A stretch of 62,720 bases of DNA, filler included, from Hausera hauseri (taxonomy: Eukaryota): the NCBI GenBank assembly GCA_046269625.1. It is 10 parts of 10 records of this genome, joined end to end, with 100 filler letters (N's around TTAATTAATTAA, not from the genome) between each part and the next. Parts side by side here need not be neighbours in the genome. Positions count along the whole stretch, not along the records: positions 20,221 to 29,862 come from JBJURY010323272.1; 9 more parts are not named here. The stretch is one strand, 5' to 3'. Position 1 is the stretch's first letter, and every line of letters begins with the position of its first letter. A model generated the notes under the pieces. The model saw only the letters and a program-made list of their open reading frames with translations, had not been told where the DNA came from and did no database searches. The position numbers and the translations under genes were made by a program. Positions 14,600-51,544 of this stretch are shown piece by piece.

Positions 14600-15790
14600 C
14601 TGAGGTCCTTAGATCACGATCCACATACAGATCATTACGCTTAAATAGTTCGCTTCGTAATACTAGTACAAGATTCCCATCAGTATTTACTATCCCAAAT
14701 AGATACAGAGGCAATAACCTACAAAATCGTGGCATAATAATTTTGCATTACTTGCATAAAGTTGGACCTATCCCTATAAAACAGATCCTTGAACAACATT
14801 TTTCCACACCGAATTTTCTATCAAAACACAGAAACATGTTATTATCAGTTGCCCAAGGCTCTATCGTTCTTGAAATACTTAAACCACCCTTACCTATTTC
14901 CAAACTGTATGCGTCATCCTTTAAATCTATTTTACTAACAATAGACGTTTGGAATTCTTCCTCATTCAATATTCTAGTCAGAGAAGCCGCTTTTTATACA
15001 TAGAACTAGAATACGCTGATGTCGCAACCTGGCACCATTTTTTTGACATTTCTCCTAATGGTGGAATATCTTTCAATGAATTAGATTGGTTACCCCAATC
15101 CAAAATGCATCAAAACACTCCTATGTGCGAATCCCTCAGCCATATCCTATTGACCAAATTATTTTTGCTGGATACGCTTTAGCATTTTCAGGGAGCTCAC
15201 CCTTAGTGTTACATGTCTTCCTAGCTGACCTGCTAGTTGATCCAAAACACCCCTTAAATATACGATATAAGACTTATGTCCAGCCGAGAGAAAAGATAGA
15301 CAATGTAGACAAACATTGTCATGGAATTTCATTAGATGACCTTGAGATGGCACCTGATTACATAATTTGTAGAGCTCACATTCAACGAGCTGTATATGGT
15401 AGGATATTAGTCACCTTTGACCCTGAATTCTTTCTCAATCTTTGGCATATACCCCGTACTATATTGTTGGGGGCTATAGACCTTAATTATAGTCAGAACG
15501 AAATTAAACCTTTTCATACTTTGTATAAAACTCCGGAATACTTCATACCCAATAAGATGGATGCGGAATATATGGGATTCATTGTACATGACGTATACAA
15601 GGAAAGAAGACGTTTCAATTGGTTACTCCCACCATGGCACCCCCAATCCTTACCCGATATTCCCACAAAATTAACCCATGCCTCACTCTTATCGATACCA
15701 CATTGCAATTGGTTCCATATCTCTTTTTTTAGAAAACCCACCCTTAGCCGTTTCTTCAACGTCTCAAGCGGTACCTACGGATGCGGATAG
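14600..15790 (+). pseudogene. Retroelement accessory gene: unknown N-domain plus inactive REX4/ISG20-like (DEDDh-fold) exonuclease
   Basis: YKTYVQPREKIDNVDKHCHGISLDDLEMAPDY...VYGRILVTFD parallels REX4-family YDTYVKP...SGI..EHL..APDF...LKGRILVGH. The upstream HRNMLLSVAQGSI matches HQQLYIHVADGEI in ORF 25637-26635. Confidence 0.65.
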
Positions 15791-17201: not shown

Positions 17202-20120
17202 ATGTCCACATCTGCAAACCTAAATTTAGGACGCTATTCTGGGAAAACCACAGAATTTCATGATTTTCTGTTAGTATGCGCAGCACAAACAGGCGGATTA
17301 GAATGGAATGTTAAGGAGAAAATTAAACGTTTAGTTTCACATTTGGAAGGAATTGCTTTACAAGCTTACTTGCAAATTGGGGAAAAGGAGAAAATGAATT
17401 GGGATAAATTTGTTGATGTACTTAGAAGAAACTTAAATCCAGATCCGTCCTCAAATGCAAAACTAAGAAGTCTACAATCTAGAGTCCAACTACCAGGAGA
17501 ATCTGTTAATAAATTTGCTTTCGCTCTTCAACTACTTGGCAAACGATACAAGGAAGCATTGGAAAAGGAAGATGCTGCCAAAGATGATAAAGGTGCACCT
17601 AAAGTTTTTGCAATGAAACCAATTTTAGTAGATTGTTTTATCACTGGACTTAATAACCCTAAACTCCAAAGAAAGCTAATTGAAAGTGATGTTTCTACTT
17701 TAAGTGAATTGGTAAGAAAAGCTATAAATTTTGAAAACGTAGAAAACAAATTAAATCAAATTAATCAAAACTCAGTTAATAACAATCAAATTTCAAGTAG
17801 TAACTTTAGACCTCAAAATCCAAATCAAAATTTTAGGCGATTTAACCAGGCTTGGCGAACTCTATCGTGGTCATATGGACAGGCCAATTGGCAAGTTCCT
17901 TCGATACCGCGTTGGGGTCGGCCTCGTTGGAATGTTGATACTAACCAGAAGGTTAGTCAAAATTTGTTTCCCAATATTGACCCAAATACCGTAAAATCAC
18001 CTATAAGAGCAAATTTACAACCACAAAGAATGGTTACTCCTATTAAAGACGTGGCTGCTGGAGCAAATTTGAACAGAACACAATGGGTTACTCCTCCGGA
18101 ACAGCAAAAACGATATCCCCTTAGATCACAAGTTATGCAGCAGTAGGCAATGGCATTTGAAAGGGACAAAGACAACTATAGAGGATCAATTCAGTGCAAC
18201 CAGTGCAAGAAATTTGGACAAATTGCCAAGTCCTGTCCAGAAGTTAAAAGGATCCCGGTATTAATGCCACCTTATATTCAACAACTTAAGCAGTGCAATG
18301 TTTGTGCACAATAAGGACATGTAGCTCGGAACTGTCCAACTCAGGTAAGTATAATGAACGAAAATAGATTTTGCTATCACTCTAATCAAATTGGACATGT
18401 TTGGAAGAAATGTCCATTGTTGGTAACCCATAATAAATTAACTCTTATGCAAAATAACCAGGATTTTGAGACACAATTGAATGATTCGGAAAACTATGAG
18501 AATTATAAGTGCTATGAAAATGCATGGAATCAAAGAGGAAGTGATGAGAGCAATGTTGAAAACTGTCATAATTCAAATAGTGTAAACGTAGAATTTGAAC
18601 TGAAACAATTGAGAGCCAAAAGGGATGAGATGCGCACCCAAGTGGATAGGTTAAAAGTATTACATGGGAATCAAGCTAGTATGTTTGGAGCGAAGAATAA
18701 GAAATTAAAAGAAATCCCTAAGAATGACAGTTATTGTAAGAAAATAGACTATCCAGAACAAATAAAAACTATTAAACAAATGATGTGTGATTATGGTTGC
18801 TTAGAAGAAATTAATCAGGATGACGATGATGATAATGAAATATTCAAATTTTGGGAAAATGAAGGGAAGAAGTTTATAAGTAAGTATGGCGATTGCTCAC
18901 AAAGAGCCAGTTGTAGTAACTGGTATTATCAAAATGAAAAGGAACCAAGTGCTGAATTAAACGCGGTCGAAATAAAATTGACCGAAGTGTCAAAAATAAA
19001 GGATGTTGAAAGTTTGTTGAAACATGAGTGTATCTATATTGCAAATGAATTAAATGAAAACTATCTAAGGGCACCACCCACTGATTCTAGTAGTGGAAGC
19101 GATGAAAATGTGATCATTGAATCCCATTTAAGCATGGTAATATTGGATAGTGAAAATAATGTTGAAAATTCTTTGATTGATATAGAATCAAATACGAATT
19201 TGGATGTAGTAACGGATAAAGAACCGGATTTTGGGAATTATAGTAAATATAGTAAAAGGATGGACGACAATGAACTGATGGAAGAATTGAACATTAAGGA
19301 GTTTGACATTCTAAGCGTACCCCGAAAAGTTGAGAAGATTAAGATTAAAAATATAGAAATAAGTAATGAATTGGAGAAATTGATTTGAATAAAAATTGAT
19401 AATGAATGTTTAAAAACTAATGAGGTAGATAAAATAGATATAAGTAGAAAGGCAAGTATGCCAGATGAATTAGGAATAAAATTATATGATAATGTAAAAG
19501 GTATAGATGTTAATATCTTGGAAGTTTCTGACGATATGAGCATGTTCGAAAAACAGTATTTAATGATCAGAGAAAACAAAGTAGATTCGGAAGGATCCGA
19601 AGATGAATATGATTTAAGAAACAGATTAGAGAAGTTAAAGGATGCAGAAAAATGACCAAAAAAGGTAGACTCACATAATTATGAAATTGTGAGAAATGTG
19701 AAATTAGTTAATGAGAATATAGAAATACAGATAAACACAGATAGTACTGAGATAAATAAAGTGAAGTTAGAAACGTTTCTGAAACAGTCTTTAAAGACAG
19801 GAAGTTTTGGCTTAAATGAAAAGATAGTAGAAGAGGAGAATGAAATAGCAAAACGGTTGAAGGTTAGACGATCTATTGATATTTTCCAAAAATACAAATG
19901 TAGTCACTGTTTTGATGCAATAATTAAGAAGATAAATGAATTTAGAAAAGTGCCCATGAATGAAGAACTTAATGTATTGAAAGTTAAGCGAATACGATAT
20001 TTAAAAGGATGTAATAATGTCTGTGAAGTAGAAATTGAATGCGTAAGACGAATTTTGGGTATTAATAAATTAAGTATAAAATTTGAAATGAATGTATCAG
20101 TGGAATTATTTATAAAGTTA
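17202..20120 (+). pseudogene. gag: Gag with three CCHC-type knuckles and a long E/N/K-rich extension; one frame with in-frame stops
   Basis: Capsid motif RVQLPGESVNKFAFAL...CFITGL. Knuckles CNQCKKFGQIAKSC, CNVCAQ*GHVARNC and CYHSNQIGHVWKKC. The ORFs at 17202, 18354, 19458 and 19689 all share one frame. Confidence 0.85.
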
Positions 20121-20220: not shown

Positions 20221-21226
20221 AGGTCCAGAAAGATTATGTTTATATGAGAATGTTATTATTATATGAGTTTGTGAATTAAATTATGGATCACAAAAATACA
20301 ACTGTCAGTGACGCCAAATCACTCTACTGAACATAACGTCCTTCGTATTATCAAAGATCAAAACATATTTGATAGTCGGAAAACTACTAACAATGTCTCA
20401 AAAACCGACAAGGTTGATCCGGATTTATCGAGTGAGTTACACTCAATTTGGTCCGATTCTGTTGAAAGGATGTCTAAAATTCTTAATCTAAATATTTTGG
20501 AAAATATGAACAATTCCTTACTTCGAACAGATTTTATCGGTGATCGAATAACCGTTTATAAGTTGCAGTTTCGTCCGAATTTCGATAGATTAAATGAGTT
20601 CATTTTGTTAAAAGCTAAGCGCGTGCTTACTATTACTGATTAAAATGTGTCACGAGATACAAGGCAGAAATCTTATTCCAAGTTTCAGATGATGTTACGA
20701 TGATTATTTTCAGCAATCGTATTCAACACAGATCTACCGACGGAGTTAATCGCAAATATTTATCGCTGACAAAAATGAATATTGATATAAATATAACGAA
20801 GAAGGTTGAAAATGATAATATAGCAATTGATATTCACTATCAATGGAAAGACGTTAAAAGATCATAAGAACTTATTTACAAATGAAAACGAACTGGGGGT
20901 TTTCAAGTTTGAACTCATACTTAACGTGGAGTCATGGACTCACAAAACCGTTTCGTATAGTGATTTGAAATTACATTTTATAATTATTGTTTTGCTCTTT
21001 TCTTGTCTGCTGACGATAATTATATAAATTGTGTTTGCTAAAATCCTTATGTTTGAGTTGCCTCAAAAGATAAAAGGTGAACGAGGCGCCCCGGGGAGCG
21101 ACACCCCGAAACAAATGGTAGTTCATGGTTCAAAAAAGGATATACATGTTTTTGAATTAAGTAAATTTAACAAATTGAAAATTTTATTGTTTCGTAAATT
21201 ATCTGTAGATATCCGAATAAATAGTA

Positions 21227-22492
21227 CAGGGTGCGGCGCCAAAATCTGGAAAAATGATACGTTTTTCCAAATATATATTTTATTACAGAAACAAAAGGGT
21301 TTACAAATTTTTTTAACCACACATTTAGTCAATGTATCTCCCGCTTAATTGGATGACTGCTTCCATTTTCGATCTGAAGCGTGAGAATGTGCGCTTTAAT
21401 GTGTTACGGTCCATATCGGTGAATTCCTCTTCAATAGCGGCTCTCAATGATGCGACGTTTGGATGTCTGGACTTGTTCATGACCCTTTCAACTACGCCCC
21501 ATACATAGAAATCCAAAGGATTCAAATCTGGGCTGTGGAGAAGCCAGAATTCTTTCGACCGAAACATGTCGACGTTGTCCGACAACAAATTTTGCGCCAA
21601 ATGACTAGTGTGGACAGACGCACCGTCCTGCTGGAATACATACGACTTTTCAGACGATAGTTTCCATTCACGGTTTCACTACATTTGTCAAAACACGCAA
21701 ATAAACTTGTTTTGTGACATTTTCCCCTTTGTTAAAGAAATACGATGGCATGACATTATCCTCACACCTAGCACGAGAACATTCGCCGGAAAATTCGTTC
21801 TTGCAACAATGGGGACATCTTCAGGGTTGTGGACGAGCCAGCGGTCATTCCTTCGATTGATTTTCGCAGCCACAGTAAAAATTTTCTCATCAGAAAAAAA
21901 CATAAGTCATCCGGAAGCATTGTTTTTTTAATGAATACAAAAGCAGGTTGCAGCGTTCAACTCGCTTTGTCCTGGTGGCTTGGGAAAGCAACGGTGTCAC
22001 TTTAATTGTGTACGACATGTAGTGCAGGTTCGCCTTGATGATTCGATGCATAGTTTTCTCGCTCACATCAACAACCGACGACAATTTTTGGATCGACAGC
22101 CCTGGATGCTCAAAAATCAGCTTATGAACCAGTTGAATGATGTCGGGCGTCCTGACAACTCGCTCCTTCGAGTGGGTTTTCCTCTCCGGTATTGCGACAC
22201 CTTCGTTGGATTTATCCGACTCGTTGTACTTTGCGATAACATAATATACAGTCGATCTGGGGTACCCGAAGGACTGAATGATTTCTCTCGCCGAGCGTCC
22301 AGCGCGAACACTTGATAATCGCGGATCTTTCATTATGCTCCGGACTTGATTTCAACATTGCGACTGTTTCGAGGTTATGATGATTTAGTACATGCTTCAA
22401 GCCATTTGAATGCTAATCGCGACATCTACCAATGGTATAGAACAGTGAGCATTTCACACTCAATTTTGTCCGGATTTTGGTGCCGCACCCGG
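21227..22492 (-). mobile_element. maT/DD37D-type transposon, full length, decayed
   Basis: TIRs cagggtgcggcgccaaaatc / gattttggtgccgcacccgg with TA flanks. Motifs FFSDEKIFTV, QQDGA and SPDLNPLDFYVW. Confidence 0.93.
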
Positions 22493-22589
22493 TACATATA
22501 TACATAAACTGAAAGTTTGATTGTATGACATTAGTAGGTCTTTGTTATCTTTATTTAGATAGTAATATATTGTATATTATATTTATAGG

Positions 22590-23540
22590 TGATGGGAAAC
22601 AGAAACAATTGTTTGCAGTAGTTAAATAAAATATCATTACACTAAGTCAACACACAACCAAGTCAAAACAAGAAATTATCACAGAGTGCAATGTATCCCA
22701 AAAATCCGTTTTTCGAATACAACACAAGCGTCGTTTGAATGTCTCCCAGGAGGTGCAATCACGGTCTGGACGTCCTCGATGCACAACTACTACCACAGAC
22801 AGAAAAATTGGAAGAGAAGTGAAAAAAATCCATTTTTCAGCTTCGCAAATCAAGACTAGTCTGGCGTCCTTACTGGACAATGTTGCCATTCGCAAAATTC
22901 AACACCGTCTGCATTCTGATCTTCATATGCCGACACTTAAACCACGCCATAAGCCTCTCATTAGTGATTCTGCTTGCAGGAAACGATTGGGCTGGACCAT
23001 GGATGACTGGAAGAAAGTGACATTCAGCGATGAAAGCATGATCCTCCAGGTACAAGTTCATTTGATCCACGGTACACATACAAGACAGTGAAACACCCAC
23101 CTGGTCTTATGATCTGGGGTACATGCAACTGGTACGGGTCTGGTGCATTGACCTTTCTAGAAAGAGGGACAATTATGAATGCTGATAAATATATAGAAAT
23201 GCTGATGGGATTGAGGTTATGGACTGCCCAGGAAACAGTCCAGACCTCAATCCCATTGAAAACCTTTGGCACTTGTTGAAGATGCTACTGAAAGCTGCTG
23301 ATACAGTCAATCAACAGCATTTACGTCAAGCTATCAGCACTAATTGGACCAGCAACATCATGCAAAGGGAATGTCCAAAATTAATCGAGTCCCTCCATGG
23401 GCGAATTGCTAGAGTGCTTCAAAATAAAGGATTTCCCACTAAATACTGATTATCTGGTCTGTATCGCATTGATGATGTATTGATGCTTTTTGTAATTTAT
23501 TAAATGTTTCTCATTTGGACTTCACTTGTCTAAATTCATT
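22590..23540 (+). mobile_element. Tc1-like element, decayed and internally deleted
   Basis: SGRPR, TFSDES, MIWG, PGNSPDLNPIENLW and a KGFPTKY end. Confidence 0.88.
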
Positions 23541-24170
23541 TGTTAGTAGTTGAAGGTGGGCCCTATCCAACACCCAACTATAACAATGAGTAATTGCAAA
23601 ATTCAGATAATATTATTTGAGCAGGGAAGATCTAACGTTCTCGTTAGAATGTTTGCACTAGTTTAAGATGCGTGTACTGCGTGCAGTGATTGCGAAAATT
23701 ATAGTCCCTCGACTTAGCTATAAAGTTTAAGATGAATTTAATTCTTAATGTGGTACTAGTCCCTCGTAAGGAGCGACGGGAAAACTATAAGAGATTTTAA
23801 AAGCTAACAGTTTATTTCTAAATAAAAACAAAAATACCGTATCAACAGCAAAGATCAAAAATGGTGATATCAACAATATTCAACAGTTTCGAAAATCGTC
23901 AATTAATTGGTTCAATCCACCCAATAACTGGAGCTTGGTTACCAATCTGAGATTTGCAAAACAATCAACAATTTGTGACACTACCCATTCGTTCCACGAC
24001 TTTATATAGTAATTTGCCAGTTTATTTACACTTCATTCTTCGGACTAATTATCAATTATTAACCAATTTACGACCATTTTTAATTTACATTTTATAATTC
24101 CATTATCCGATTCTACATACAATTTCGCACTCTATTTACATTTTCTCAATTTCGCAATTATGACATGTTT
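23541..24170 (-). repeat. Probable 3' LTR of the cargo-bearing gypsy element (start not defined)
   Basis: Lies downstream of the RING ORF. Minus-strand TATATAAA at about 24000-24007. Ends ...CTAACA at 23541, where Tc1 sequence resumes. Confidence 0.5.
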
Positions 24171-24227
24171 ATTTATTTCCGTTCAGATTAACTTCAGTTT
24201 CGATTGCACTTTCGATTGTACTTTCGA

Positions 24228-26579
24228 TTATCTATATGCCAAGTCCGCTTCCGAATCTGCTTCGTTCGACGGCGATCGTGAGTCAATGTGGTAGGACGTA
24301 GTGGGTACTCCGGGGAATATTTCTATTATCTTTTTATTTTCTCCATTGGAATAATATCTTAACCTGGTAGCTTCAGCTCTGCATACTGGGCAGGTCGTTT
24401 TCCCATTTTTCAGGGTCCACGTTTCTAAGCAGTACCGGCAGTACTTGTGACTGCAATCTTTGTTGTCTAGGACTACGAATCCTTGATAGAGATCCGCGTC
24501 ACAAACAGGACATTATTTTTTTTCAGCCGCATCAATGTTCACAAGATTTTCATCAACTTCTATTCTCTCAAATACCAGCCCTTTCTTGTCTTGATATAAG
24601 TATCCGTGCAATCTTTTTTGATTTGGGTCTATCGAGCTTTTCCTTGAGTCATCGGATACTGCAACTAAGGTCCATTCGACAATTTCTTGTTTGTCCAAAT
24701 CGAGTACTCCAGTCTTCTTGTACTGTCTTTTTAGTTGAATCCTAACTTGGGTATCTACGGGAATTGTTAATCGGTTAGTGCCACTCTTTGATTGAAATAT
24801 CGGGGCTAGGTATCTGCCGATAGTATGGTCTTCTTTGGCATATCCGTTTCCACTCACTATCTGCCTTGGAACGGTAGATACATAAAATATAGCTTCTTTG
24901 ATTTTTCCCTTGCTATAGTATTCAGCCATGACGAGGATTCGTTTATATTCTTTTACTTGGCCAAATTCTGTGACGATAATTGGGGTATCTTCTTCCCAGT
25001 TCTTTCGAAGAACGTTAACTTCCGTTTTAGGGGCTTTGGGCTTAGTAATTTCTAGTTGGTTTTCTCTTTCTTCTTCCCATTTTTCTTGATTCGATATTCT
25101 TTTCTGATCATCCATGAGTTTCTCGGGAAGTAGGTTATCTGTCGCTGGGCCTTTGCTAGTCTTGCTTCTTTTTTGTTGATGTAGTCCAGGAAAGAGGTCT
25201 TTGTCTTTTGCCCCTTTGGTTTCTCTGAACTATCAGCTCCTATTATTATTTCTCCTTGAGCTTTACTGGTTGATGGTTTCTGTAGATTGGTTGAGACTTC
25301 TGGCTGGTCGTTATAGACTGTTATTCGAAATTGGTTATGTTCGCGGGTTTCGATCTGTCGATAACTAAGGTATTCACTAAACCCTTTTCGGAATTTCTGC
25401 AACAGTGCCTTGGGGTTGTTATCAGACATCGCATTTTGTATGGGGCTTCTGGGTTTTCATTCGTGCTCTCATCGTAATGAGTTGTAGATATCCTTTATAA
25501 ATTTGGTCCTTTGGCTGGCTGTCATTAGCTTAGGGAATTTGAACCGATCGTCATTCATGGCTTCTAGCATCGTCTTAAATTGTGATTCGCGGGATGCTGA
25601 CGGAAGCAGGCAGCCTCTTTTCCGCATTAACAAACTTTACACTTGGCTTACTACTGCTGGGTTCCGACTCAATTCGCGAATTCCGGCTATGTATTCCTGT
25701 CTGATTCCTAATCGTTCCAACGCTTCGTGTACTCGAAATCCGGTAACGACGTATCCGTATAAGCAATGGCTTATATCTTCTTGGATTTCCAAGAAATCTT
25801 TTCCTTTTTCGAGCTGCGGCTTCGTAATTCCAGTAACGTCGGGAAAAGTATCTTGTATCCTAACCCGAGGTGAGATTATTTTGCTTATGATTTCCTCTCC
25901 ATTGATATTTCTAATAGAGACCTCAATCGGAAAGTACCATCCGTCATCCTTTTCTCCATAGTTTACGGCCAATATCCGGGTATGTCGGCCATCTGGGACT
26001 AGTCTGTAGGATTCCCAATTTTGCTCTATTTCGTCTTCCGATGGTTTCTGTACATATAATAACGGGGATAGCAGCTTCATCATTTCTGTACGCCATGTCA
26101 TTTCGATCATGATTTTGGTCGGTAGGTCTGCAATACTGAGTTCCAGAGCATAATTCATAAGGCTATAGCAACATAGCTCATCGGTGCTAAATTTCCACTG
26201 TTGCCCCTTTTGCGTACTGCAGGACTGTCGTACGATCCTGTATTGGATTTCTCCATCAGCGACATGTATGTACAATTGCTGATGTGTCGGCTCATATGGG
26301 ATCAGATCCCTCAAGAGGTATGCTCGTGCATCCTCGGGATTTCTCATGGCATATAATCGGATCAATCTATTCTCTTCTAAACCACATTTTAGTCCGTTCG
26401 GTATTTTACTCTTTTGTTTGAAATCTACATAATTCTGGCTTTTCAAATTTTCTCCAATTTGTCGGTATAGGTTTTTAGATAACGGCTTGAGGACAGTGAC
26501 ATGCTGCTGCAAAAAATTATCGATATCGAAATTGGGACTGACTGATAAATTCTTCGCCTTCTCGGTCATACTTACTCTG
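24228..26579 (-). pseudogene. Accessory polyprotein: unknown N-domain, inactive REX4-like exonuclease, charged linker, unknown domain, C3HC4 RING
   Basis: ORFs 25637-26635, 25052-25429 and 24513-25115 are followed, past an in-frame TAA, by CPVC...CSHKYCRYC...W...CPVCR. Collinear with 47236-49698. Confidence 0.8.
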
Positions 26580-26679
26580 CTGAAAAATAAATAAAGATTA
26601 ATCCTAAGACAGATCATCGTTTTGAAACAAAACATTTTCTCTGTCTGATGATAGGATAACCATATCTGTAGTTGTCAGG

Positions 26680-27936
26680 TTATGCTATCATAAGGTCCGT
26701 CTCGGTACCTGTTATCCGTTTATCTCCCTCTCGATTTTTACAGCGTTTATTACAATTTTTGGAAACTAGAAAAGTCATCGCTGTTGTTATAACAAGAACG
26801 AAAATTGACAAACTAAATATAGCTATTATCGGTAAATTACTCGGCTCAGTAGAACTTTTCGTGGTAAATACATTTTGAGTGCTGATATCTTTATGTGGAA
26901 TTACCTCAACTTTATTGCCAAGAGTTCGTACTGTAAAAGTTTTAGGATCCTTACCTCTCGCAGTAATTCGAATTATATAGTCATGTTGCGGCCGTAAAGA
27001 TTTACATTCAGCTTTTTAACTATTTTTTTTCAGGAATACAACTTGGTTGGTGTGTAAAGTACGACATTCGATTTTGACGTCTCGATTAAGCGTCTCTTCC
27101 GCGTAAAATACGATTTTATCGCTCTTTGCCAAAATCCTGACTGGCGTGTTTCCTGACATTTCATCCGAAGTGACGATCGTAGTAGGGAGAATCGTACTTG
27201 AGATTGAAGGTGGTTTACTTGTAGTAGTTGGGAAGGGAAGCTCCCATATTCCAATTTTCGGGCAATATCCACGCAAATAAGTGCTTGGCTCTCCGGGGAA
27301 CGTATTGTACAAATCGAATTGCAACTGATATTTTTGTCCTAATTGTATCACACAGCACACAGTCGATCGGCATCTTGCCAAAAAACAATATTCCGGAGCA
27401 GGAGTCGAAACAGATAATGGTATAAATCTCTTAGTTTCAATCCGTATGCATTGATTCTTCAAGTCCTTGTAAATTCCCATAATGTTATTATCTAAGAGCC
27501 TTTTAAACGGGTCAATGCATCGGATTATTTCGTCCGTCTTGGCTTGATTTGCATCCTTTTGTTGGGGCATTCTTATTACGAGTCCCGAAAGTATATAAGC
27601 TTGAGCTCCATACTGATTATAATAAAACATTTGGAATCTGTATGCGTAGAATTTCCCGAAATCTAAATCACAACATCTTTTGGAATGTCCGTACGGAAAA
27701 TCACACGTGTTTTTGTTTACGAATATTATTTGAAATTTCATCAAACTTGAAATGGGTTCACTTGCTTTAAACCATGCACAGGGTTTGGTCCAATCCATAT
27801 CGAGTACTCTAAGTGACTGTAAGTTCTGGATATCCTTCCTATGTTTGCTCCGAGCGATCGATTTCGTAGTTGGTATATATGAAGCGATTAACGTTAAGGC
27901 CAGGATTATTTGCGCATACGATATTGGTCTGGTCAC
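26680..27936 (-). CDS. Type I membrane protein (signal peptide, three Cys-containing FN3-like repeats, TM); one frameshift in an A-run at about 27025
   Basis: Signal IILALTLIASYIPTTKS. Repeats CCDLDFGKFYAYRF, CCVIQLGQKYQLQF and CKSLRPQHDYIIRI. TM LPIIAIFSLSIFVLVITTAMTFLV. In frame with integrase behind a single TAA. Confidence 0.65.
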
Positions 27937-27948
27937 TATTGGCGATGT

Positions 27949-29862
27949 TTACTTTTCTTTATTAACTTTATTTGAACGCAAATTATAGCGTTTATCCGGC
28001 CATATTACCGTCTTTACTACTCTCTGAATCGATACAACCTCTTCCTTGCCGTTTTTGTTCATATAAACTGTGGTCGGTGTAACTTTAGTGACTTCATACG
28101 GTCCTCTACTGGTTCTAGTGAGTTTAAGAGTTGTGCCTTTCTTCGCCACCGGGTAGTATACGTAAACCCAGTTTCCGGGTTCTAGATCATGTGGTTTAGC
28201 CTTCTTATCATACTGTTTCTTAAATTGTTCCTGGTATTCTTTAGATAACTCTTTAGCTATTTCCCAACACCGGTGTAATCTTGATTGTAATACCTCGATA
28301 AAATTCTGCTCTAAATCTTCCGTTTTAGTTCTATATGGAATCAATCCTAAATCGGTAGGCAGTACAGCTTCTCTACCGTACATCATATAAAATGGAGTGA
28401 ATCCTGTCGCAGAATATGGAGTAGTATTGATGGCGAACTGTATGTCTTCTAAGAACTCGTCCCAATCTTTCTTATCCTTCGCAACTACTGTCGATAAGAT
28501 TTGTATAACGGTCGCGTTCATTCTCTCGACCATTCCATTACATTGGGGGTGGTAAGCTGTAGTAGTTAATCTTTCGAACTCAAAAATCTTGGTAATTTTC
28601 TCGAACAGTTCACTCGTAAAATTCCTTCCTCGGTCTGTCAGTATTTGTTCGGGTGGTCCGTATCTGCAAATGATCTTTCGGACTACCGCTTCTGCTAAGG
28701 TCTTGGCCTTTTGGTCTAATAGCGCTATAAGTTCGACGAAATGGGTCAATCGACCTACACACGTCAGAATGTATTTGTTATTTTTGTGGGTTGTAGGCAA
28801 GGGTCCTACAATATCCATATACATTGCTTGCATTGGTCTATCCGGCACATCAATAGGCTTGAGCTCAGCAACGTAATTCTTTACTTTTCTTTGCTTGGTT
28901 GCACATACTTCGCAAGCATTTACCCAGTTTTTCACGTCGTTATAGATACTTGGCCAATAGTACTTTTTTAAAATTCTTTTTAATATCTTTTTCCATGACA
29001 TGTGTCCAGCCAAATAAGAATCATGTTCGGCCATGAGAACTTCCGTTCGTAGTCCTTTCGGTAAAAAACTAGTTTCCGTCCCTTTCGTTCGTAATGTAAC
29101 ACATTTTTGCAGTTCAAATCTCCAACGACGTAGTATTTGTGACCATATCGTCGTAAATGTTTCCGTAACTGATGACCTTTGGGTGTTACGTTGGTCTCTA
29201 TGAACTCGATAATCTGTTGTATAACCCGGTCTTTTCTTTGCTTAACAGCAATTTTAGTGCCTTATCCAATGTGAGAATCCGTTGTCTCTCTACTACGTCT
29301 TTAAGGTGAGCTTTTCTCATTACCGTAACTGCGCTTGTTTTCGTTTTAAGTCTCGATAATGCATCAGCGTCGACATGCCTACTTCCGGGCTTATATTTGA
29401 ACTCGATATTATATCGCGATATCTACTCAATCCATCTGTTGAGTCTACAAGTTGGATTATTCGCTCTACCTTTCAAAGTCGTAACTGCCTTATAATCCGT
29501 AACGATTATGATATTTTGTCCGTAGACATATACATTGAAATGCCGTAGTGCTTCTTTTACCGCCAATGTTTCTAGTTTTGTAACAGAATAGTTCTTTTCT
29601 GCTTTCTTCAGAGAACGTCCCACGTATGCAATCGGGTGTTCCAACTCTTCGTCTTCTCGTTTTTGAGCCAGCTCATATCCGATACCTTCCTTACTGGCGT
29701 CTGTTTTCATTATGAACGGCAGGTTGAAATCGGGATATCTTAAAACAGGTTCGCTCGTTAGAATTTTCTTCATTTCATCAAAGGCCTTTTGTTCAACATC
29801 GGTCCATTTCCATTTAATCCCTTTCTTTAATAAACGATACAAGGGTGCATTTATCTTTGCGT
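27949..29862 (-). pseudogene. pol: Ty3/gypsy pol 3' part (RNase H, integrase with GPY motif)
   Basis: KTDASKEGIG and KLETLAV. HHCC zinc finger HDSYLAGH...CEVC. Core motifs MDIVGP, LTDRGRNF and GMVERMN, then RGPY. The RNase H is a close paralog of 1-482. Confidence 0.97.
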
Positions 29863-29962: not shown

Positions 29963-30410
29963 AACAATACATAACTTTATTGATATTCATTATGTAAGAA
30001 CTAAAAATGAGGTACTTAAAGACAAAGAGAAGTTTGTCGTAACTCACATATCGAATTTTCGAGAAGTCAAACAACCTTTGGATGTTATTGTTATTTTTGA
30101 TGGAATTTGTAAAAAATTACCTCATAAAAAGATGGAGCTTTGGCTAGTAGGAGAGGGACCTCTACTTTTGGATGTTCAAGAGGAAGTTCGTTTAAGGGGA
30201 ATAGAAGATAGAGTAAAATTTTTTGGTACACGCTTGGATGTGTTTTGTTTTTTAAAGCAAAGTGATCTCTTTTTGCTTACGAGTAAAGGAGAGTCTTTTG
30301 GTTTGGTCCTTTTGGAGGCAATGAGTTCTGGGGTTCCTTGCCTTTCTTCAAACTTGGGTGGTGTCCCTGAAGTTATAGAAGATGGCATCAACGGGTATTT
30401 ATATGAAGAC
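29963..30410 (+). CDS. Bacterial GT4 glycosyltransferase, BshA-like, C-terminal half (partial)
   Basis: HNFID, THISNFREVK, LVGEGP and SDLFLLTSKGESFGLVLLEAMSSGVPCLSSNLGGVPEVIEDGINGYL. Confidence 0.88.
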
Positions 30411-30863
30411 AAAAATTTTGAAGAGGCTGTTGCGAAAGCGAAAAACATCGAAAATGCATTCAGGGACCAAAGCTACCAAGCAAACAATTACTCAGCTGAA
30501 ATTAACACAATCATGCATTCGCAAATTGAGGGAAATAAAAAATTAATGGAACTCACTAAAAAATTAAATGAAATGGAAGAGACTAAAACTTTAAATAATT
30601 TAGAAGTGAGACAAAATAGTGAAAATCAAAGAGAAAAATTATGTTGTTTAATTTGTGGTAAAAACCATCTAACATTAAATTGTTGGCACTACCCAAATGT
30701 AAGAAACCATCAGCAAAATAATTTCAATCAAAGATACAGCCAAAACTATAATAGAAATAATACAGGAAGGAATAATAGAAACTTCAGACAAGGCAGATAC
30801 CACAGGAAACCAAGAGGAGGTAACTTCAGGCAGCACCCTTACTCAAATCAAAATTTAAACTAG
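30411..30863 (+). CDS. gag: Gypsy gag C-terminus (zinc knuckle, N/R-rich tail)
   Basis: FEEAVAKAKNIE capsid-end helix and CLICGKNHLTLNC knuckle, directly upstream of pol. Confidence 0.8.
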   Translation, partial: KNFEEAVAKAKNIENAFRDQSYQANNYSAEINTIMHSQIEGNKKLMELTKKLNEMEETKTLNNLEVRQNSENQREKLCCLICGKNHLTLNCWHYPNVRNHQQNNFNQRYSQNYNRNNTGRNNRNFRQGRYHRKPRGGNFRQHPYSNQNLN

Positions 30864-38384: not shown

Positions 38385-41300
38385 TAAGAGAGTTTTTTTT
38401 AAAATATAACAATGGCGCAAAGACATACACACGATACCGATTTCAAAGACGATTAGCGCAAAATACGTCAACAGCACTCAACGAAGATAATGAACAGGAG
38501 GAGAATGTTAGTTCTACTAGTGGTTCGGAAGTAATAAGTACAGCGTCAGCTCCAGAATCTATAATAGACTTAGATTCAGTACAATTATCTCCAACTTTAG
38601 TACAACATAATTGGACAAGAGAAATTAATGGAAGAAGGAGACCATTTCGAGGACGATACCGTAATACCCCAGACCCACGACAGTTAATACAAAGAGTACT
38701 CAATCAAGAATTAGAATGTCGTACACGATATGAAGCACACCAAGTAAATGTAGATGAACTACGAGTGAGGCAAAATAGAACAGAGGGTAATATCCGACAA
38801 TTGCTACAGGAAATACAAAATTTACCTCGACAAAGAGATGATAGCACTATAGAAGACAGTATTTTAAATCCTGATTTGAGGTTAGATAGAATCGAAGAAA
38901 GAGCCGTAGTGTTAGAACAAAAAATAAACGATAATAATATAAATTTAAATGAAATTAAAGAAAAAACTGATCAATTAACACAGGATGTGGGTATTCATAC
39001 CAGACAAATACATGATATACGACTCCAAGCTTACGACCACACGATAGCAATACGTCAAAACAAAGAACAAATAGTAAACAACGATGGACAAGTAACCCAA
39101 GGATTAAATAAGATACAAAACCAATTGACGGTCATTGTAGACGAACAAGAACAGATTCAAGAGAATCATAATTTCGTTAGAAATCATATTGATCATCTAA
39201 CACAGGAAATAACTGAATTAAATGAACACGTTGAGCAGATACAAACGAGAGATATAGTAAATCAAATCAACGAACGACTAAACGTGGTACAATCCCCAGA
39301 ATTTTCAATAGAATTGAGTGAGATATCTTGTGAAACTACTGATAACGATGACAACATGGCTCGACACGGGAATAATCAAGATCGGTTCGCTCAGGATGAA
39401 GAGCGTAACTGCGACCAAAATAACAATGCCGGTTACGGATTATGGAATTTTAGGAGGGAGAAGAAGTATCAAATGCTTCCTCGCCTTCAACCATACGAAG
39501 GACGAGTATCAGATTTAGAGGATTTCTTGGACGAATATGATTCATTGGCAACAGCCATGCATTGGGATGATGCGAAAAAAATATCTATGTTGCCAGTACA
39601 TGTAAACAATGACTTGAGGATAGCAATAACACGAATACCTCCACAAAGAGGGGAAACTTGGGTACAGCACCGAGAAAAAATATTACGGAATCAACAGGTT
39701 GATATACAAGAAAATAGATATCTAAAATTCCAAAATTGTAAACAAAAACCAAATGAAGAGGTATTAACATATATTAATAGATTTAAAACAGCAATGAATA
39801 GGTATTTTGGTGATAACGCACGAGCATTTGGTGCTATGATTATGAAACAATTTGTACTTGGACTCTCACCACCTCTACGAGAAGGAGTCAAATTTCATAC
39901 AGCAGATAATATTAATGACTTAATTGATTATACCCGTCGAATGGCTACTCGAATAGATGAAACACCGGTATGGAATAATCAAACACATATCGCAGCAGTA
40001 GCCACCGCTCCATTATTAGTGAGACCAGACGTACCAAATCGGAGTAATTCACCATGGAGAGATTTACCTAGAAGTCAGAGCCCTAGCGGACAAAGTAATA
40101 ATACATCACAGAGGAGTAACACTCCGGAAAGAAGAAATAATAATCAACCTTCTAGAGACTTCAACAATAATCAAAGGGATACACCATATCAAAATCAAAG
40201 AAACGAAAGATATAATGATAACCGACAACGGAATGAAACAAGATATGAAAGATCACGCGATTACTCAAGAGATAGAAATGATAATAGAAGTCGATTTCCT
40301 AGTAGAGATAGGTACAGTAATGATCGAAATTTCGATCGATACAACAATAGAAATAATCAAGTAAATTCACACTACAGACGCGATGATAGCCGAACCCGCT
40401 ATTCAACTAATAGATCAGATGGACCAAGATTTAATTATTCTAACGATAGAAGGAATGATAGTCGCGATAGATCCAGAAGAGATGACAGTCGGGAACGATA
40501 TAATAACTTTAATAGAAATAATAGTGGAGAAAGAGATAACCGGCGAAGTAACAGCAGAGACAGATATAATTCTGGAAATAATAATAGAGACCGGTATAAT
40601 GATCCAAGATACAGGAATTATGATGGAAGACGAGACTATACTCCACCCCGACGAGAATCAGATAGATACAATAGGAATCCTAGTCCATATCCCCAAAGAG
40701 ATCGAAATCGATCTCCCTCTCCAATACCAACCCATAATAATAACGAAAGATACACTAGACCGACAGACTATATTCTCAGACAAAACGATATTAGTAGAAA
40801 TCCTTCACCATTTCGATATGATAGGAATACGACACCGGAACGGCCCAGATACTCAAATGAGAAAAGACCAGATTCAATGACATCACCAAATAATAATCTC
40901 ACTAAGGAAAAAGGAAGCTCTTCCGATAATGGAAGGAGTAGTAGCGACGAAAGGAGTCTATCACCTCGGCATTCAGTTACGTTTAATGAACAAACCAAAT
41001 CCGCTTTTACAGGATTATTAATAGCGAAACCTATACAAGACGACCAGCAAAGTATACTTAAATCATCATCAAATATTTCTATCTTAGAAAAACCTTTTGT
41101 AACAAGAAATCGCTTAGAACAAGCAGGACAAAAAGTGCCAGATATTCAGCATAATACACTTCCCTATATGCTATGGCCAGAAACCAGAGAAATAAAAGAC
41201 TTACTCTTAACGTTTGTAGCGGTAGAGAAGATTATCGAGAATAATCACGAACCAGAAATCGACCGAATAAGAATAGAGAATAATGAAGGTAATATAATAC

Positions 41301-44300
41301 TGGAGCTAGAAAAAGTACGCTCAGAAAAAGAGAAATACTTTGAAAATCTTAGGCAATTACTCTGTGGAAGAATTGTTGTCGGAATCGATTTACCATGGTT
41401 ATTTAGACAAATACAGCTGAAAGAAACGGATATTTTTGGCACGTTTAACGTGGATCAGAATTTCAATTTACCAAATGATCAATGGAAAAGAGATGGAACA
41501 TTACCACAACGGTTGATTAACTTACGACGAGAATACAAGATAAAACTTAGTCGTCAAGGATCTCCATATTATATCTTCCCAAGTAGACCATTGTTTAAAG
41601 ATAATAAACAACCTATGCAGGAAGTGACATGCAATACCACGCTGATTGCAGAAGTAGCGTTACGACACATGGATATGGAAATAACACGAAGTTGGGATAG
41701 GATATTTGATGATAAGAAAACCAATCGAATAGAGTTTGCAGAAATTGCTAATCAAGGATCAATTTGTATGGAAAGTATTGATAAAGTTTATTTAAAGAAT
41801 ACTGATATTCAAATCAAAAGAGATGACCCACCATGTGCAGTAATCACTGATCAAGGAGAAGTACGGCTACAGATTAATAATAAAGCGGTAATTATCTCCA
41901 AAGAGACTATGATAATTCCCAACTATCCTTATGAAGGAAATTGTCGGATTCAACCATTAGATGACAATCCCTTATATTTAATACAATTACCTAAGAAAAC
42001 ACCCATACTATCCATGGACGAACCTGTAAAACAGGATAAGGAAATAATACTTACAGGTAGATGTATAAACAATGGAGATCAGAAAGGACTTACTCAAATC
42101 ACCGCCAAAAATTTAGAAGGGGAAACAATTTTCAATATTCACATATATTCGAACATACCAGACCCTACGAAGTACACTGAGTATAGTAGACGAGTCAATC
42201 CTCAACGACAAGAAGCAGTGAGTAAGTTTATGAATAAATATTTACCAGGAAAAATAATCATTGAACGACAACTACCAGAACTATTAAATACATTGAAAAT
42301 TAATCCAAAAAATTTAACTGCTGTCTATGATTTAGAACAAACCAACAGAAATTATAGATGTCTAGACTTGTACCATGGTCATAACTCAGAAATAATGGCA
42401 CAAAGATGTTTATATGAGTACTTAAAGACGACACGAGTGGAATACAATCTGCCATGGATAATAGAGAGTCAGAAAACATTACAAATAGCCTTTCCGTTAA
42501 TTCGACAACTTGAGAAAACAAATGAAGCACGAGCCATTCCAGTAATCGAACCAATTGCTCAAAGATGCCCCGATATGGACTCGGACGAATATTCGCAGGA
42601 GCCCGTCAGAACTCGACTAACTGGAGAATGGATAGAACCTCACAATGATAGATTGGTTGCACCTCTAACTCAGCCAAATATTCCACCCCAACGACCTACA
42701 TCATTCGAAGCAATATGGGATTTGGCGCAACCCAGTACATCCAAGAAAGAATCACGATTAGTTGATACAGATGACACATTTGCAATTTTAGATGACGACG
42801 AATTTCTTCCTATGCACGATGCGAACGAATATCCAGAAGATCCGTTTTTATCAGTCGAAAATCCAAAATATACACCAGAAATAAATGTACCTCCAGGTTC
42901 AATAATATATGATGAACCTACAAAGCTAATAATTGAAATACTCAAAGCGAAACTACAAATGACAGATACACCACCGAATGAAGTGTGGAATGCTCTACGA
43001 CAATATGAATCGTTATCACTGACTCATCGAATAGAATGCGCGCCACTACTTATACCGTTGACGAAGGATGATGTATATTGTTTCCTAGCAGCAAGAAAAT
43101 TGCTTAAGACTCTTGGTAGAGATTTAAGAAGAAAACATAGAAGAAAACAGCCATATATAATAAGCATAGAAATTAAAACTAATAAACGGGAGCAGGAAAT
43201 TGAAGTAACGGCTGGAATGTTTACTAAATTCATTGATCTCCGAAGAAAAGTATTGGACGAGTTAGATTTGGAAACCAATATAATAGCAAAAACTGATGTC
43301 TATGGTAGAATAGCCGCTGATAATGATTACATAGTGGATTACGGACTACTTACCGGAAAAATCTACCAGATTATCATGGAATTTGGTACTAAGAAAAAGG
43401 GAGGAAGACCACGAAAGTGCGATTTTAACCCCATAAGTGATGATGAAGAAAATCCTGAGGAAGAAAGACCGGAGAAACAAAAAAGAAAAAAGCCATTATC
43501 AAGAAAACGTAAGGAACAACGAGAAGCATTAGAAGACATACTATATGACAATTTTCAGCAAATTACTATTAGCGATGATGAAAATGAACAAATGAAGGAA
43601 CCAGCTGCAGGAACATCAAATCAACAGGAAATGAATATCCCAAATGTAACATTGACAACCCAAGAACTTATAGAACAATTAATTAAGAAAGTTAACCCGA
43701 ACCAGCTCAAGAAGATACCAGCCATTACAACAATTCCATTACAGTCCATAATAGAAACGGCTAGAAACTTCTCATCACAAATTACAAAGTTACTACAGAA
43801 GTACAAATTAAAAGGAGGTCTGAATAAGACATTAACACGGTTATTAAAGGAATGCGATCAAAACCGACTGCTTATGGCTTTAGGATGTATAGTAGTTAGT
43901 TTTAAAAATCAAACTGAGATTGATGCTAAACTGCACCATACAGTGAGAGACTTAGCCCACCACATGGATAAATTAACGAAGGAATGGGTAACTAAACAAG
44001 GAGGATGGGACGAAATCCTTAAGAAATTTAACCCTTTGTATAATTCAATACAAGTAAACGACAAGTATGTCACATTCAAATTTCATAACCAATACTATAT
44101 GGTCACATTTGATGATAACGCCGTCAAATGTTTTCGAATAATGAAAGAATCCATTAAATGTGATGATCTTCAACCACAACATTCGTATCGAATACAAATA
44201 GTATATTATACACCTCAACTACCCTTCAGGCCAAAGACAGTAGCAATATGCCATATAACCACCTTAGAAGAACGGAACCCTACAAAAATCGAATCACTGA

Positions 44301-47235: not shown

Positions 47236-49698
47236 TTATTGCCGGCGCAGTAGGTCCAGTCTACTTGGGAGACTACTGTCATCGACTGGACTTGCCTCTA
47301 ACATATGACTGGTGCTAGGTTGATCTTGTATAAGAATGGATCTATTACATTCGCCATTCGAAAAATACTTTAGACCATTTGACTCAGCTCGGCACACTGG
47401 ACACGTAGTCTTACCATTATCAAATGTCCATGTCTCTAGGCATGTACGACAATATTTGTGTCTACATTCTTGATTATCCATTTTAACATATCATTGCCAG
47501 ATATTTTCGCCACATACTGGGCAGGTGCCTTCATTTTTGTTTGTGTTTTCATCCTCATCTAAATCGACTTTGTGTATAATTTGGATTTGCTCGAGTACGA
47601 GTCCGTCTTGGTCGGAGTACAGGTAACCATATAATTCTTTTTGTTGAGTGTTGATCGAACTTTTTATAGGGTCGTAATTCACGGGAACCAATGTCCAATC
47701 CATGGTGGTTTCGTTATCTAAATCGGGAATTTCACCTTTCTGGTAGGTTTGATATTGTTTCTTAAATACCAATTTAATTGGGTTGTTTACGGGAACAGAC
47801 AACTTTCCAGTCCTTTTTGACTTAAATATTGGGACTAAATATTTGCCTATCTCGAAATTCTCCCAAGCGTATGCTCCATCTGGTATTTCTCGTATCCCAG
47901 CACTTTTTACATAAAACATTGCTTCTTTTATTTTCTGATGGCTACAATACTTGGTGGTCACTAGTAGCCTTGGAAAATCTTTATTCGTTGAAAAATGTAT
48001 GTTTTCTTCCGATCTTTTCTTTTTCAAAACATTCACTTTAGTGAAGGTAACATTGCTGTCCGATTTTCTCCTTTGGCTTTGAGTTCTAGTCTTTTTATTT
48101 CTTCAGAGTGTATTTCTTTCGTTTTCGGGGCTTCTGTGTTTTTAGCTTCCTTTTCCGTTGTCATTATTTCGTTCCGGGCTTCTGTCTTTTATGTTTTCAA
48201 TTTCCTTTAGGTTATCTTCCTTATTTTTCTTTTTGAAAAGATACTCATAGGGATAATTTTCTTTTTCCGGTGGAAAATGTCGTCTCTGTTTTGCTCCTTT
48301 TTTCCTCTTCTGGGTTCTTCGGTACCTTGCCCACTTCTTGACCTTGGGGTTTTTGCTTCATAGATTCTAAATCGCGGCTTTGACTGGTGCTAGGTTCATT
48401 TTCAGTTTCGTTTGTTGCTGTGATTTGTTTCGATTCAGCTTTCTGAATGGTAACTCTAATTATCTCCTGGCATTGGTTCGACAGTTCTGATGGGGAATAT
48501 GGTATAAAATGCCTTCTGTGTTTTGAACTTAACACTTCGGGGTTGGTTGAGCTTCGTAAATTTTGTCTAAGATTATCGGGAATCCATTCGTGTTCCAATT
48601 TGAGTCCTGCATATATATATCTCTTAAATATTGGGAGCGTTGGCTCGCCGTTAGAAGTCGGCTTATTCGGACGTGTTCTCCACTCATGGCTTCTAGCATT
48701 AACTTAAATCGGCCCTCTACGGTCGGTGGTAAATAACCGTTTCTTTTCTTAACGGTCTGCTCCATTTGTTCCATTACTATTGGATGAGTCTCGATTTCCC
48801 TAACTCCGCTTACGTGGGTATTGGGTAACTTCAGCTTCTCCATAATCCTTTTCACTTGATAACCAACAATTATACTTCCGTATAGACAATGTAGTAATCC
48901 CTCACGAACTAATTCGATATCTTTTCCATTGACTAATCGTTCCTTATTTATTCCCGTAACTTCTGAATAAGTTTCTTGTATTCTTTTTCTTGGGCTGATA
49001 ATTTCTGTGTAGAGTTCGGTTCCTCCTATCTCTCGTATGGATACTCCAATTGGAACGTCGTTTCCATCATCCCCTTCTCCGTAGTTTACGGATATAATCC
49101 TAGAGTTTCTGACGTCCTGGACTAATCGAAAAGAATGTAGATGGTTATCCCGGTCGTTCTCGGTTGGTTCTTGGTTGAATCATTATGGTGGTAGTCGAAT
49201 AAAGGGTGCGTCTTCGTAACATACCTCTATCATAAGTTTGACTGACAATGCGGCGACTCGAAATTCTATTTCGCAATTGTAGTGGTGGAAATCCCCACTG
49301 TTAATTAGAAAGGTGCTATATCTATGTTGACGTCCTTGTGAAGAATCCCAATTTTGATTCTTTAATCTATAATAGATATCTCCATCCGCTAGGTGGATAA
49401 ATATGTTCTGGTGGTAGACTGGCTCGTATTGAATGAACTGTCTCAGGGCGTATGCTCGTGCATCTTTGTCGTCCCTCATTGCGTATAGCCGCACGGTTCT
49501 ATTCTCTTCCGTACTTCCTTTTAGGTTGTTTGGGATCTCGCTAGTTCGTTTATATTCTACGAAATTCTTTCCGTGTAATTCGTTATTAATTTGCCGAAAT
49601 ATTGATTTGGACGGATGGATTAGCACTGTGCACATTTTTGTAAGAAGTTGTCGATGCTACGCCGCTCTTTTTCGAAATTCATCTGGATACTTACCAAT
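47236..49698 (-). pseudogene. Accessory polyprotein, paralog of 24228-26579 (N-domain, pseudo-exonuclease, unknown domain, RING)
   Basis: Shared blocks EENR..RLYAMR..DARAY, KIKEA.FYV, IG.YL.PIF.SK, L.GYLY.D..GLV and CPVC...C.HKYCR.CLETWT..NGKTTCPVCRAE. Confidence 0.85.
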
Positions 49699-50089: not shown

Positions 50090-51544
50090 CTTTGGTCTGT
50101 AAATTCCTTTACTTGCGGTGTCAGCGAACTTATCATCCGTTATGCCTTTTAACAAATTTGTTCCAGTTAATTTACCCGGTGTGGGTATTATTCCTCTATT
50201 AGGCAGACTTACCCAATCTGTCTCACTTCTCTTAAACATGGGTTCGCCTAAACCTGCTTTACATTCTTTCAAAACAGTTGATTATGTCGCGTTTTCTAGC
50301 AAGACTCTAGTGAGTGGCATAACCAATCGAGGTACGTTTTGATATATGACTGGCAATTCTTGAATACAACGTTTTCCCTCCACGTTTAGGGATACATCTC
50401 GTTTTTCGCATTCGTAGGTCAACAGGACTTCGGTAACCCTTCCGAAAATGCCTTTTTTTATTGGAATTACGGGTGATGCTAGTTCTGGATTTGCGTATAT
50501 TAAGGCTAATTTGGTCCACATGATTTTCATATCCAATTTACAGTCGTTTGCGATCATTTTGTGGTATATTCTTCTAATCCGATCTGTCCTTTGTAATAAA
50601 AGTAATCATCTCTATTCTTCAAATTATCTTCTATTCTTACATCTTGTGTTTCGAGAGCAAAAGTAGTTATTGCAGCTCCTGCTACGAAGAATGTTTCGTG
50701 ATTAGTGGCGTACACTACTACATTGCATCGAGAAAGCATTTGTTTCTTAATGAACATTAACCCGTGATCTTCGGAGATTAGTATCGTGGGTGTAGTCTGT
50801 TCATTGACGTTCTTCCTTGATCTGGCATTATTGTCGGTTGTGTATACATATCTTTTTCCCGTGGTTTCGTTAAAGTTTATCTCTTATTTTAATAAAGTTA
50901 CAATCATTTATAGGTGGTTGAATCCAAATAACTATCGAATTCCGGAAAGTACAGGCACCATCTTGGATATGACACTTCTGATTTTCTGTATGTTTTTGTC
51001 ACACTATGGAACATCACATTTTGGTTCCTAATTTCTGTCTCAGAAATCAACTACCACTATTCCTGCTTTTCTTCCTTTTCCTGTATCGTATTCACCTCCT
51101 TTACAATATCCGGTGTGCATGTTTAATTTCCCAATTGCTACTTTATACACGAATTATCTTTCCTGGTTGGGCTTCTAACTCTATCCCACCCCATCTCAAT
51201 GTTTTGGTTTCCTTGGTTTGTTTGCATTGTTGTCGATCCAAATCCACAGGTACTAGCGGTGTTGTTGGTTTTACGATTGACGAATGTCCGTGCATATTTC
51301 CACAGTGGAAAATGCTTCGCGATGGTCGTAACATACACTATATCCCATCTATTGCGATTAGTTCGCGTTGTTGGTACAAGAAATACTTTTTCTCAATGGT
51401 TACCAACTTGTGAGGTCGGGCGTCTTCGCATAGTTCCAGTTCCATTAAGGAATATCTTTTTCCGGCCTTAAACTTATCGCAGTCATATACTGTGATTGCA
51501 CCGAGCTGTCTTACTAACATCATAAGTGTTATTAGTTTAATCAT
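50090..51544 (-). pseudogene. env: Env-like chuvirus-G-type glycoprotein, N-terminal part, truncated
   Basis: Internal signal peptide MIKLITLMMLVRQLGA, then ITVYDCD...YSLMELELC and FHCGNMHGHSS (chuviral G pattern GYDC...SL...C, CGMHSH). The distal part aligns with 2462-4075. Confidence 0.82.

Follow-up and report, generated by a model that had tools for sequence, protein, structure and literature searches.

Why does a retrotransposon carry a gene with the predicted fold of an exonuclease and none of its catalytic residues? The question arises from a 62,720-nucleotide stretch of DNA from Hausera hauseri (GenBank assembly GCA_046269625.1), hereafter the window, which is made up of ten contigs with N spacers between them. 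The pseudo-exonuclease gene lies in contig 20221-29862, where the minus strand reads RNase H, integrase, an ORF at 27019-27948 and then the gene itself, here called the accessory gene.

27952..29860, minus strand: remnant of an LTR-retrotransposon pol gene cut short by the contig end, with RNase H at 29426-29860 and integrase following at 27952-29241.
27019..27948, minus strand: ORF between integrase and accessory gene, with an N-terminal hydrophobic stretch.
26018..26557, minus strand: AlkB/2OG-oxygenase-like double-stranded beta-helix domain, in the same frame as the exonuclease and directly N-terminal of it.
25475..26002, minus strand: ISG20/REX4-fold pseudo-exonuclease domain, from profile, predicted fold and alignment.
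Catalytic-position codons, minus strand: ExoI A at 25969-25967 and N at 25963-25961; ExoII A at 25723-25721; ExoIII M at 25525-25523 and R at 25510-25508.
25637-25639, minus strand: in-frame stop in the pseudo-exonuclease, from the reading frame.
24516..24953, minus strand: conserved domain of about 135 aa with no fold assigned, after a low-complexity linker; its frame differs here from that of the exonuclease.
24381..24512, minus strand: C3HC4 RING finger (69% identity), with a stop ahead of it here; in the homologue P0003 it shares the ORF of the exonuclease.

The pol remnant matches Pfam PF17919, PF17917, PF17921 and PF00665 and is 41% identical to the pol of L004, an env-pol element described below. 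In both elements the accessory gene is an extra ORF beyond gag and pol that follows RNase H and integrase on one strand, and pol domains in family elements run RT, RNase H, integrase. The target contig stops inside pol; env is found upstream of a sister copy of the gene, in contig 1-4480 and in L004. The ORF at 27019-27948 gave no Pfam match, and its likeness to the L004 polyprotein tail was not significant. No LTR pair was found in the partial contigs of the window. One public sequencing run overlaps part of the stretch, with 13,004 of its contigs aligning to contig 20221-29862; it may be the window's own source, so that its depth and variant data are not independent support. Summed depth in that run is in the thousands over the element compared with 1 to 8 at the contig's left end, and the element therefore belongs to a repeat family. 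There were no RNA runs among the sequencing runs listed for the stretch, which has no bearing on expression. Adjoining the element, 31-nt inverted repeats flank transposase-like remnants of a DNA transposon at 21224-22495.

The first-pass annotation had read this locus as a REX4/ISG20 DEDDh pattern with its ExoI, ExoII and ExoIII residues replaced. The peptides that it quoted are present on the minus strand at 25475-26002, although the in-frame stop had been read through, and both the pattern and the replacements were borne out. A 27-row family profile matches ISG20L2 from ExoI to ExoIII (E 1.4e-24), a two-copy profile from the 25k and 48k copies retrieved four structures at E<=10, all of them DEDDh (ISG20L2, E 2e-5; PolC exonuclease; SDN1; ISG20), and a profile of 22 canonical proteins scores 43.5 bits against the domain, though the Pfam RNase_T cut-off was reached by none of the five window copies. 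The AlphaFold model, whose input alignment comprised the 27 family rows and no canonical REX4, reached pLDDT 85 (a two-sequence alignment gave pLDDT 42 and an uninformative fold search). Its top Foldseek match is ISG20 (E 3.9e-8), which is also the best match by VIA-align (1wlj; Z 18.0, rmsd 2.0 A, 151 aligned residues) at 15% identity, and the small-RNA-degrading nuclease SDN1 stands with ISG20 among the top structural neighbours. In the ESM Atlas the 48k copy is nearest to RNase_T/REX4-like clusters (0.92-0.94). Judged by homology, the 25k domain is a member of the DEDDh fold family.

All 22 canonical REX4-like proteins in our alignment keep D,E,D,H,D at the catalytic columns, where the 25k copy reads A,N,A,M,R and keeps none of the five: D-x-E of ExoI is A-x-N, the ExoII D is A, and H-x4-D of ExoIII has become M and R. 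As the domain fails every catalytic-motif test, it was not filed as an exonuclease, and its description as a pseudo-enzyme with the predicted shape of an exonuclease and without the catalytic residues is well supported by the model and the alignment.

To locate further copies we used a profile built without window sequences, run in six frames with a reversed-sequence control.

47287..49647, minus strand: the entire accessory gene in a sister copy, interrupted by stops and a change of frame; AlkB-like domain at 49611-49138, pseudo-exonuclease at 49122-48595, then the 135-aa-type domain, and RING near 47523-47392.
50091..51150, minus strand: what is left of a broken envelope gene, upstream of the sister copy.
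14614..15700, plus strand: distant third copy, with an AlkB-like remnant at 14614-14931 (23.7 bits) and a pseudo-exonuclease match at 15260-15499.
41207..41461, plus strand: degenerate exonuclease-like segment 1, inside a 2342-aa gag-bearing polyprotein (hhalign probability 1.4%).
42068..42346, plus strand: degenerate exonuclease-like segment 2, inside the same polyprotein.

The five copies announced earlier for four contigs all match this profile and are spread over four N-separated contigs: 123 bits (E 2e-37) for the 25k copy, 122 bits (E 5e-37) for the 48k copy and 48 bits (E 2e-14) for the 15k copy, but the two polyprotein copies are weak, at 19 bits (42068..42346, E 2e-5) and 12 bits (41207..41461, E 2e-3). 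The best other six-frame match scored 4.4 bits and the best reversed-sequence match 2.2 bits. Plain pairwise search gave good support to the 25k/48k pair only, neither the 15k copy nor the polyprotein region found anything relevant by sequence in the PDB, and no AlkB-like domain was detected next to the polyprotein copies. At the catalytic columns the 48k copy reads S,N,I,L,R (0/5 kept); the 15k copy reads G,A,F,M,M (0/5), polyprotein copy 1 A,E,L,gap,K (1/5) and polyprotein copy 2 T,R,L,P,S (0/5), with column placement less sure for these three because they are long-branch rows.

Besides the in-frame stop, the 25k copy has a frame change in the linker and a stop ahead of the RING; it is a broken insertion that yields no full protein. 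The 48k copy is broken at other places, and the stop at 25637-25639 is absent from about 97% of the depth there (13 related contigs). The envelope remnant upstream of the 48k copy is 68% identical in nucleotides to 3006-4081, which overlaps an ORF for a PF24664 fusion glycoprotein. In 47078-52660 this remnant continues into a membrane-spanning tail with no pol between, and L010:3-1679 joins a protease to a similar tail; both are possibly pol-deleted, non-autonomous elements that retain the accessory gene. Downstream of the third copy a gag ORF (PF03732) begins at 17064. In both window 14614-18146 and L001:1344-6782 the accessory gene precedes gag by 1.3 to 2.1 kb, the two genes sharing a strand, a layout that could be a circle junction, a tandem copy or a different gene order.

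Other contigs of the window hold further material. Contig 35410-46977 contains ORFs for RING, BIR, RING and RING, then the 2342-aa gag-bearing polyprotein (no pol match, two dead exonuclease-like segments) and a membrane-type ORF with ankyrin repeats. Such RING, BIR and ankyrin cargo is typical of host-manipulating DNA viruses; here it sits on a retroelement. A broken, Polinton-like protein-primed DNA polymerase B (PF03175) occupies 52761-57942, and the 4.4-bit match to the exonuclease profile at 53275-53391 may be its proofreading domain. At 29964-30860 a family-4 glycosyltransferase fragment (PF00534, E 4e-30) is in frame with a gag-like tail where the contig begins; bacterial DNA has probably been joined on there as a chimera. 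The fragment at 59913-60290 resembles, by eye, a seven-helix receptor exon.

The domain is one part of a larger protein. The order in the accessory gene is AlkB-like domain, dead exonuclease, linker, ~135-aa domain and C3HC4 RING, and P0003, an open 870-aa homologue, joins all four domains in one ORF; this intact ORF is known from that single sequence (a cluster of 1). Both the 25k and the 48k copies align to P0003 from the first domain to beyond the RING in two blocks at 41-49% identity. The AlkB-like domain (about 150 aa) scores 82.7 bits with a profile made without window rows. Residues 43-198 of its model resemble Ofd2, vCPH and ALKBH3/5/6/8 at VIA Z 8.4-10.3 (Ofd2 5yl6: Z 10.3, rmsd 3.9, 142 aligned; other 2OG oxygenases: Z 8.4-9.5), scores that are middling, with cupins also among the Foldseek matches. 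Its profile found no relative by sequence among solved structures, and the HxD/E...H iron triad is absent, with one conserved His (26/33 rows) and no conserved HxD/E. The ~135-aa domain (601-735 in P0003) has 57% identity with P0003 and 44% with the 48k copy, and no usable Atlas match came up for it. All eight C3HC4 zinc ligands are visible in the 25k RING, and that of P0003 matches PF00097 at 30.8 bits (cut-off 21). The stop in the 25k copy, the AlkB-like domain, the RING and the active-type relatives described below had been overlooked in the first-pass annotation; an AlkB-like domain in front and a RING behind point to a role as an adaptor or ubiquitin ligase.

To place the loss of catalysis we turned to the wider family. 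A search of 1.84 billion representatives gave 77 proteins, most with Pfam RNase_T, and 22 of the 77 share the AlkB-like domain (iteration 4). The RING is confined to one of these matches, P0003; the other dead members that we examined are without it. Among 25 aligned matches, eight have all five residues (ExoII Asp or Glu), 16 have 0 to 2, and one is truncated with the first three present. The earlier statement that all copies lack the acidic set thus holds within the window but not for the wider family. Intact relatives carry His at ExoIII, and 15 of 18 intact members have Glu instead of Asp at ExoII. A metagenome scan with the intact-member pattern produced 18 loci, and ORFs were examined in 8; because the pattern came from intact members, these loci do not give a fair count of intact against dead forms. 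L018 was rejected as a family member. In L004 a 3006-aa ORF encodes fusion glycoprotein, protease, RT, RNase H and integrase, and behind it lies an ORF (L004:9899-11284) for an AlkB-like domain and a D,E,D,H,D exonuclease, so that this env-pol element carries a catalytically intact two-domain relative; gag lies downstream in L001 and a protease upstream in L010. Word-based protein searches found no match with the window copies; the family alignment as query recovered just 2 rows, both already known. Locus scans with dead-clade queries found 0 relatives in metagenomes and 0 in viral contigs. Four proteins of 730-800 aa, P0005, P0006, P0007 and P0012, consist of three or four REX4-like repeats, and by eye the majority of these repeats lack the catalytic set; two of the proteins are named from the insect Clastoptera arizonana.

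In a tree rooted on canonical REX4-like rows, the family is a single clade (100/99) whose earliest branches are the intact rows; 25k, 48k and P0003 group together within it (100/99). The tree holds 35 of 66 rows, including 8 of the 22 canonical ones, with long-branch, truncated and near-duplicate rows excluded and no mixture model. The 25k, 48k and P0003 rows each keep 0/5 residues and have Asn at the ExoI Glu position, which places catalytic loss before their split. Intact copies, which would speak against a dead family, do occur in other lineages of the family but not in this clade. Since intact relatives with the same two-domain front branch first, the loss in the accessory-gene clade is, on this phylogeny, derived. 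Repeated independent loss, by contrast, was not established: the tree implies 2 changes, and one dead clade is not rejected (p-AU 0.43).

We then considered whether the dead domain has been maintained. Across 173 codons the 25k and 48k domains share 46% amino-acid identity, with codon-position identities of 0.55, 0.67 and 0.45, and dN is 0.51 and dS 1.91; the resulting dN/dS, the ratio that had been proposed as a check across copies, is about 0.27 and is rough because dS is near saturation. In related contigs, third positions account for 26 of the 40 variant places listed, out of 70 in all (p 4e-5). None of the 40 listed variants (of 70) changes a catalytic-position residue, with none listed above 25934, so that ExoI is uncovered. 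Identity is 43-44% for the dead exonuclease domain, 42-49% for the AlkB-like domain and 44-57% for the ~135-aa domain, which puts conservation of the dead exonuclease close to that of the AlkB-like domain and slightly below that of the ~135-aa domain. As the ExoI Asn is common to 25k, 48k and P0003, the constraint postdates the loss. These comparisons support purifying selection on the dead exonuclease domain after catalytic loss and, together with the predicted fold and the residue loss, the earlier view of a retained pseudo-nuclease.

Maintained for what? Our preferred explanation, a tentative one that we place somewhat below even, is that the dead exonuclease, as a pseudo-enzyme, has become a binding module through which a RING ubiquitin ligase is directed to an RNA-protein factor of host defence. 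An ancestral gene for an AlkB fold and an active exonuclease would have been carried by envelope-bearing Ty3/Gypsy elements, and the 25k/48k/P0003 lineage would have lost catalysis and gained the ~135-aa domain and the RING. The two pseudo-enzyme domains would recognise RNA or RNP, and the RING would recruit an E2 enzyme and so tag the target with ubiquitin; that target would be a host silencing or antiviral factor, and the outcome relief of silencing or restriction. The observations behind this proposal are the predicted fold, the residue loss, the four-domain order (from one homologue), the selection and the intact relatives, and a further point in its favour is the second window element, where dead copies are accompanied by cargo of the RING, BIR and ankyrin types. 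Counted against it are the charge of the domain, which shows no overall basic bias (28 K+R versus 25 D+E), the intact ORF from one sequence and the rarity of the RING. Because only 1/77 matches has a RING, it cannot explain the loss in the other dead members, and most of these would work without one.

Neutral charge would suit a pure protein-protein scaffold, in which the dead folds serve as a substrate adaptor or a particle-assembly module and bind no RNA. Two further points count for it: among dead members the active-site positions are free to vary, with the Gly, Pro and hydrophobic columns of the core retained, and copies are embedded in a gag-bearing polyprotein. Against it, both folds derive from nucleic-acid-acting families, and two Arg columns are retained in 15/15 and 14/15 dead rows. 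A conserved Arg is found in 15/15 dead and 13/14 intact family rows versus 7/22 canonical rows, which we count towards the RING-guided module. We regard the scaffold as a lesser possibility, on the unlikely side. Also unlikely, in our estimate, is the role put forward in the first-pass annotation, that of a cap or decoy at RNA 3' ends; it would protect element RNA or keep small RNAs from host trimming, and no RING is needed for it. It draws on the structural proximity of ISG20 and SDN1, on the absence of a RING from most dead family members and on Maelstrom and EXD1, described as inactive DEDD proteins that retain RNA binding (PMC5408684), but it is at odds with the lack of basic bias and leaves the RING and the ~135-aa domain unexplained. 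Maelstrom has in addition been proposed to have undergone an active-site switch (PMC2628886), a precedent for nuclease activity persisting at a rebuilt site. The dead rows share no alternative acidic or His/Cys set, and their sole conserved Asp (14/15) also occurs in intact and canonical rows, which makes a rebuilt nuclease highly improbable. A similarly slim chance is left to neutral decay, with a captured, unused exonuclease simply drifting: both full window copies are indeed broken, but the dN/dS of about 0.27 with third-position bias, replacement residues common to copies that are 44% identical, the open 870-aa homologue and the predominance of depth without the stop have already largely refuted it.

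To put the RING-guided module in context, we compared the accessory protein with known systems. It resembles ISG20, ISG20L2 and REX4 (RNase_T, DEDDh) in fold and profile match, and is unlike ISG20 and REX4 in keeping 0/5 catalytic residues, in falling below the Pfam cut-off and in being borne by an element. Among mobile elements, the bdelloid rotifer Juno and Vesta LTR retrotransposons and Terminons are reported to encode an intact DEDDy ORF3 (Rodriguez, Kenefick and Arkhipova 2017, PMC5408684), likewise a DEDD-superfamily exonuclease carried as an extra ORF in LTR elements. This confirms the rotifer half of the precedent cited earlier, although as DEDDy, but not the nematode half, for which we found no confirmation in the literature searched. 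Unlike that RNase D-like, intact ORF3, the accessory protein is DEDDh, dead and fused to an AlkB-like fold and a RING, a comparison made at the level of subfamily matches, the best being DEDDh. The DEDD to DEED change described for rotifer ORF3 echoes the ExoII Asp-to-Glu of 15/18 intact family rows, and DnaQ-like exonucleases are listed among known accessory domains in a review (PMC6338049). In Phalaenopsis orchids, Gypsy elements are reported to have captured an AlkB/2-ODD domain, a working m6A demethylase near plant AlkB (PMC9289625), similarly an AlkB fold as an extra ORF of a Gypsy element; in contrast, the accessory-gene domain has no iron triad and no detectable sequence match to solved AlkB proteins. 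As in the GAG-ENV-POL errantiviruses with HSV/gB-type env described from Nematoda, Bryozoa and Platyhelminthes (Chary and Hayashi, PMC13524379), env precedes pol in L004 and in contig 1-4480 of the window. In the main text of that paper, the part compared, the words exonuclease, AlkB, RING and accessory do not occur. In the literature searched, which excluded subscription papers, Repbase notes and supplements, we found no description of an AlkB-like/exonuclease/RING fusion, and the retrotransposon accessory protein is apparently undescribed.

PML is a RING protein, with the RING first in its domain order. Its pseudo-exonuclease is reported to bind G-rich RNA and DNA (PMC13659232), and PML-I to promote proteasomal loss of L1 ORF1p (PMC10123124). 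The PXL of PML isoform 1 is described as a catalytically dead domain of DEDDh type, housed in a RING protein and derived from exonucleases that are active in fish; it serves here as a functional model only. Unlike the accessory protein, PML is a host restriction factor with a TREX1/Plex9-like subfamily and another domain set, and homology is limited to the fold. A more specific version of the proposal, doubtful as it stands, is PML in reverse: in envelope-bearing invertebrate retrotransposons, a RING ligase guided by dead AlkB and dead ISG20/REX4 RNA-binding folds would destroy a factor of the host's small-RNA or antiviral defence.

It is still largely open whether host silencing is actively countered by proteins that retrotransposons encode, and exonuclease cargo of elements has been published as without demonstrated function (PMC5408684). 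The family offers matched natural proteins (intact DEDDh, dead, and dead with a RING) that allow testing of what is gained from a fold kept after its catalysis is lost. If PML in reverse is true, the accessory protein would be the retrotransposon counterpart of lentiviral accessory proteins, and the passage from active nuclease to dead adaptor would be preserved in living members of one family.
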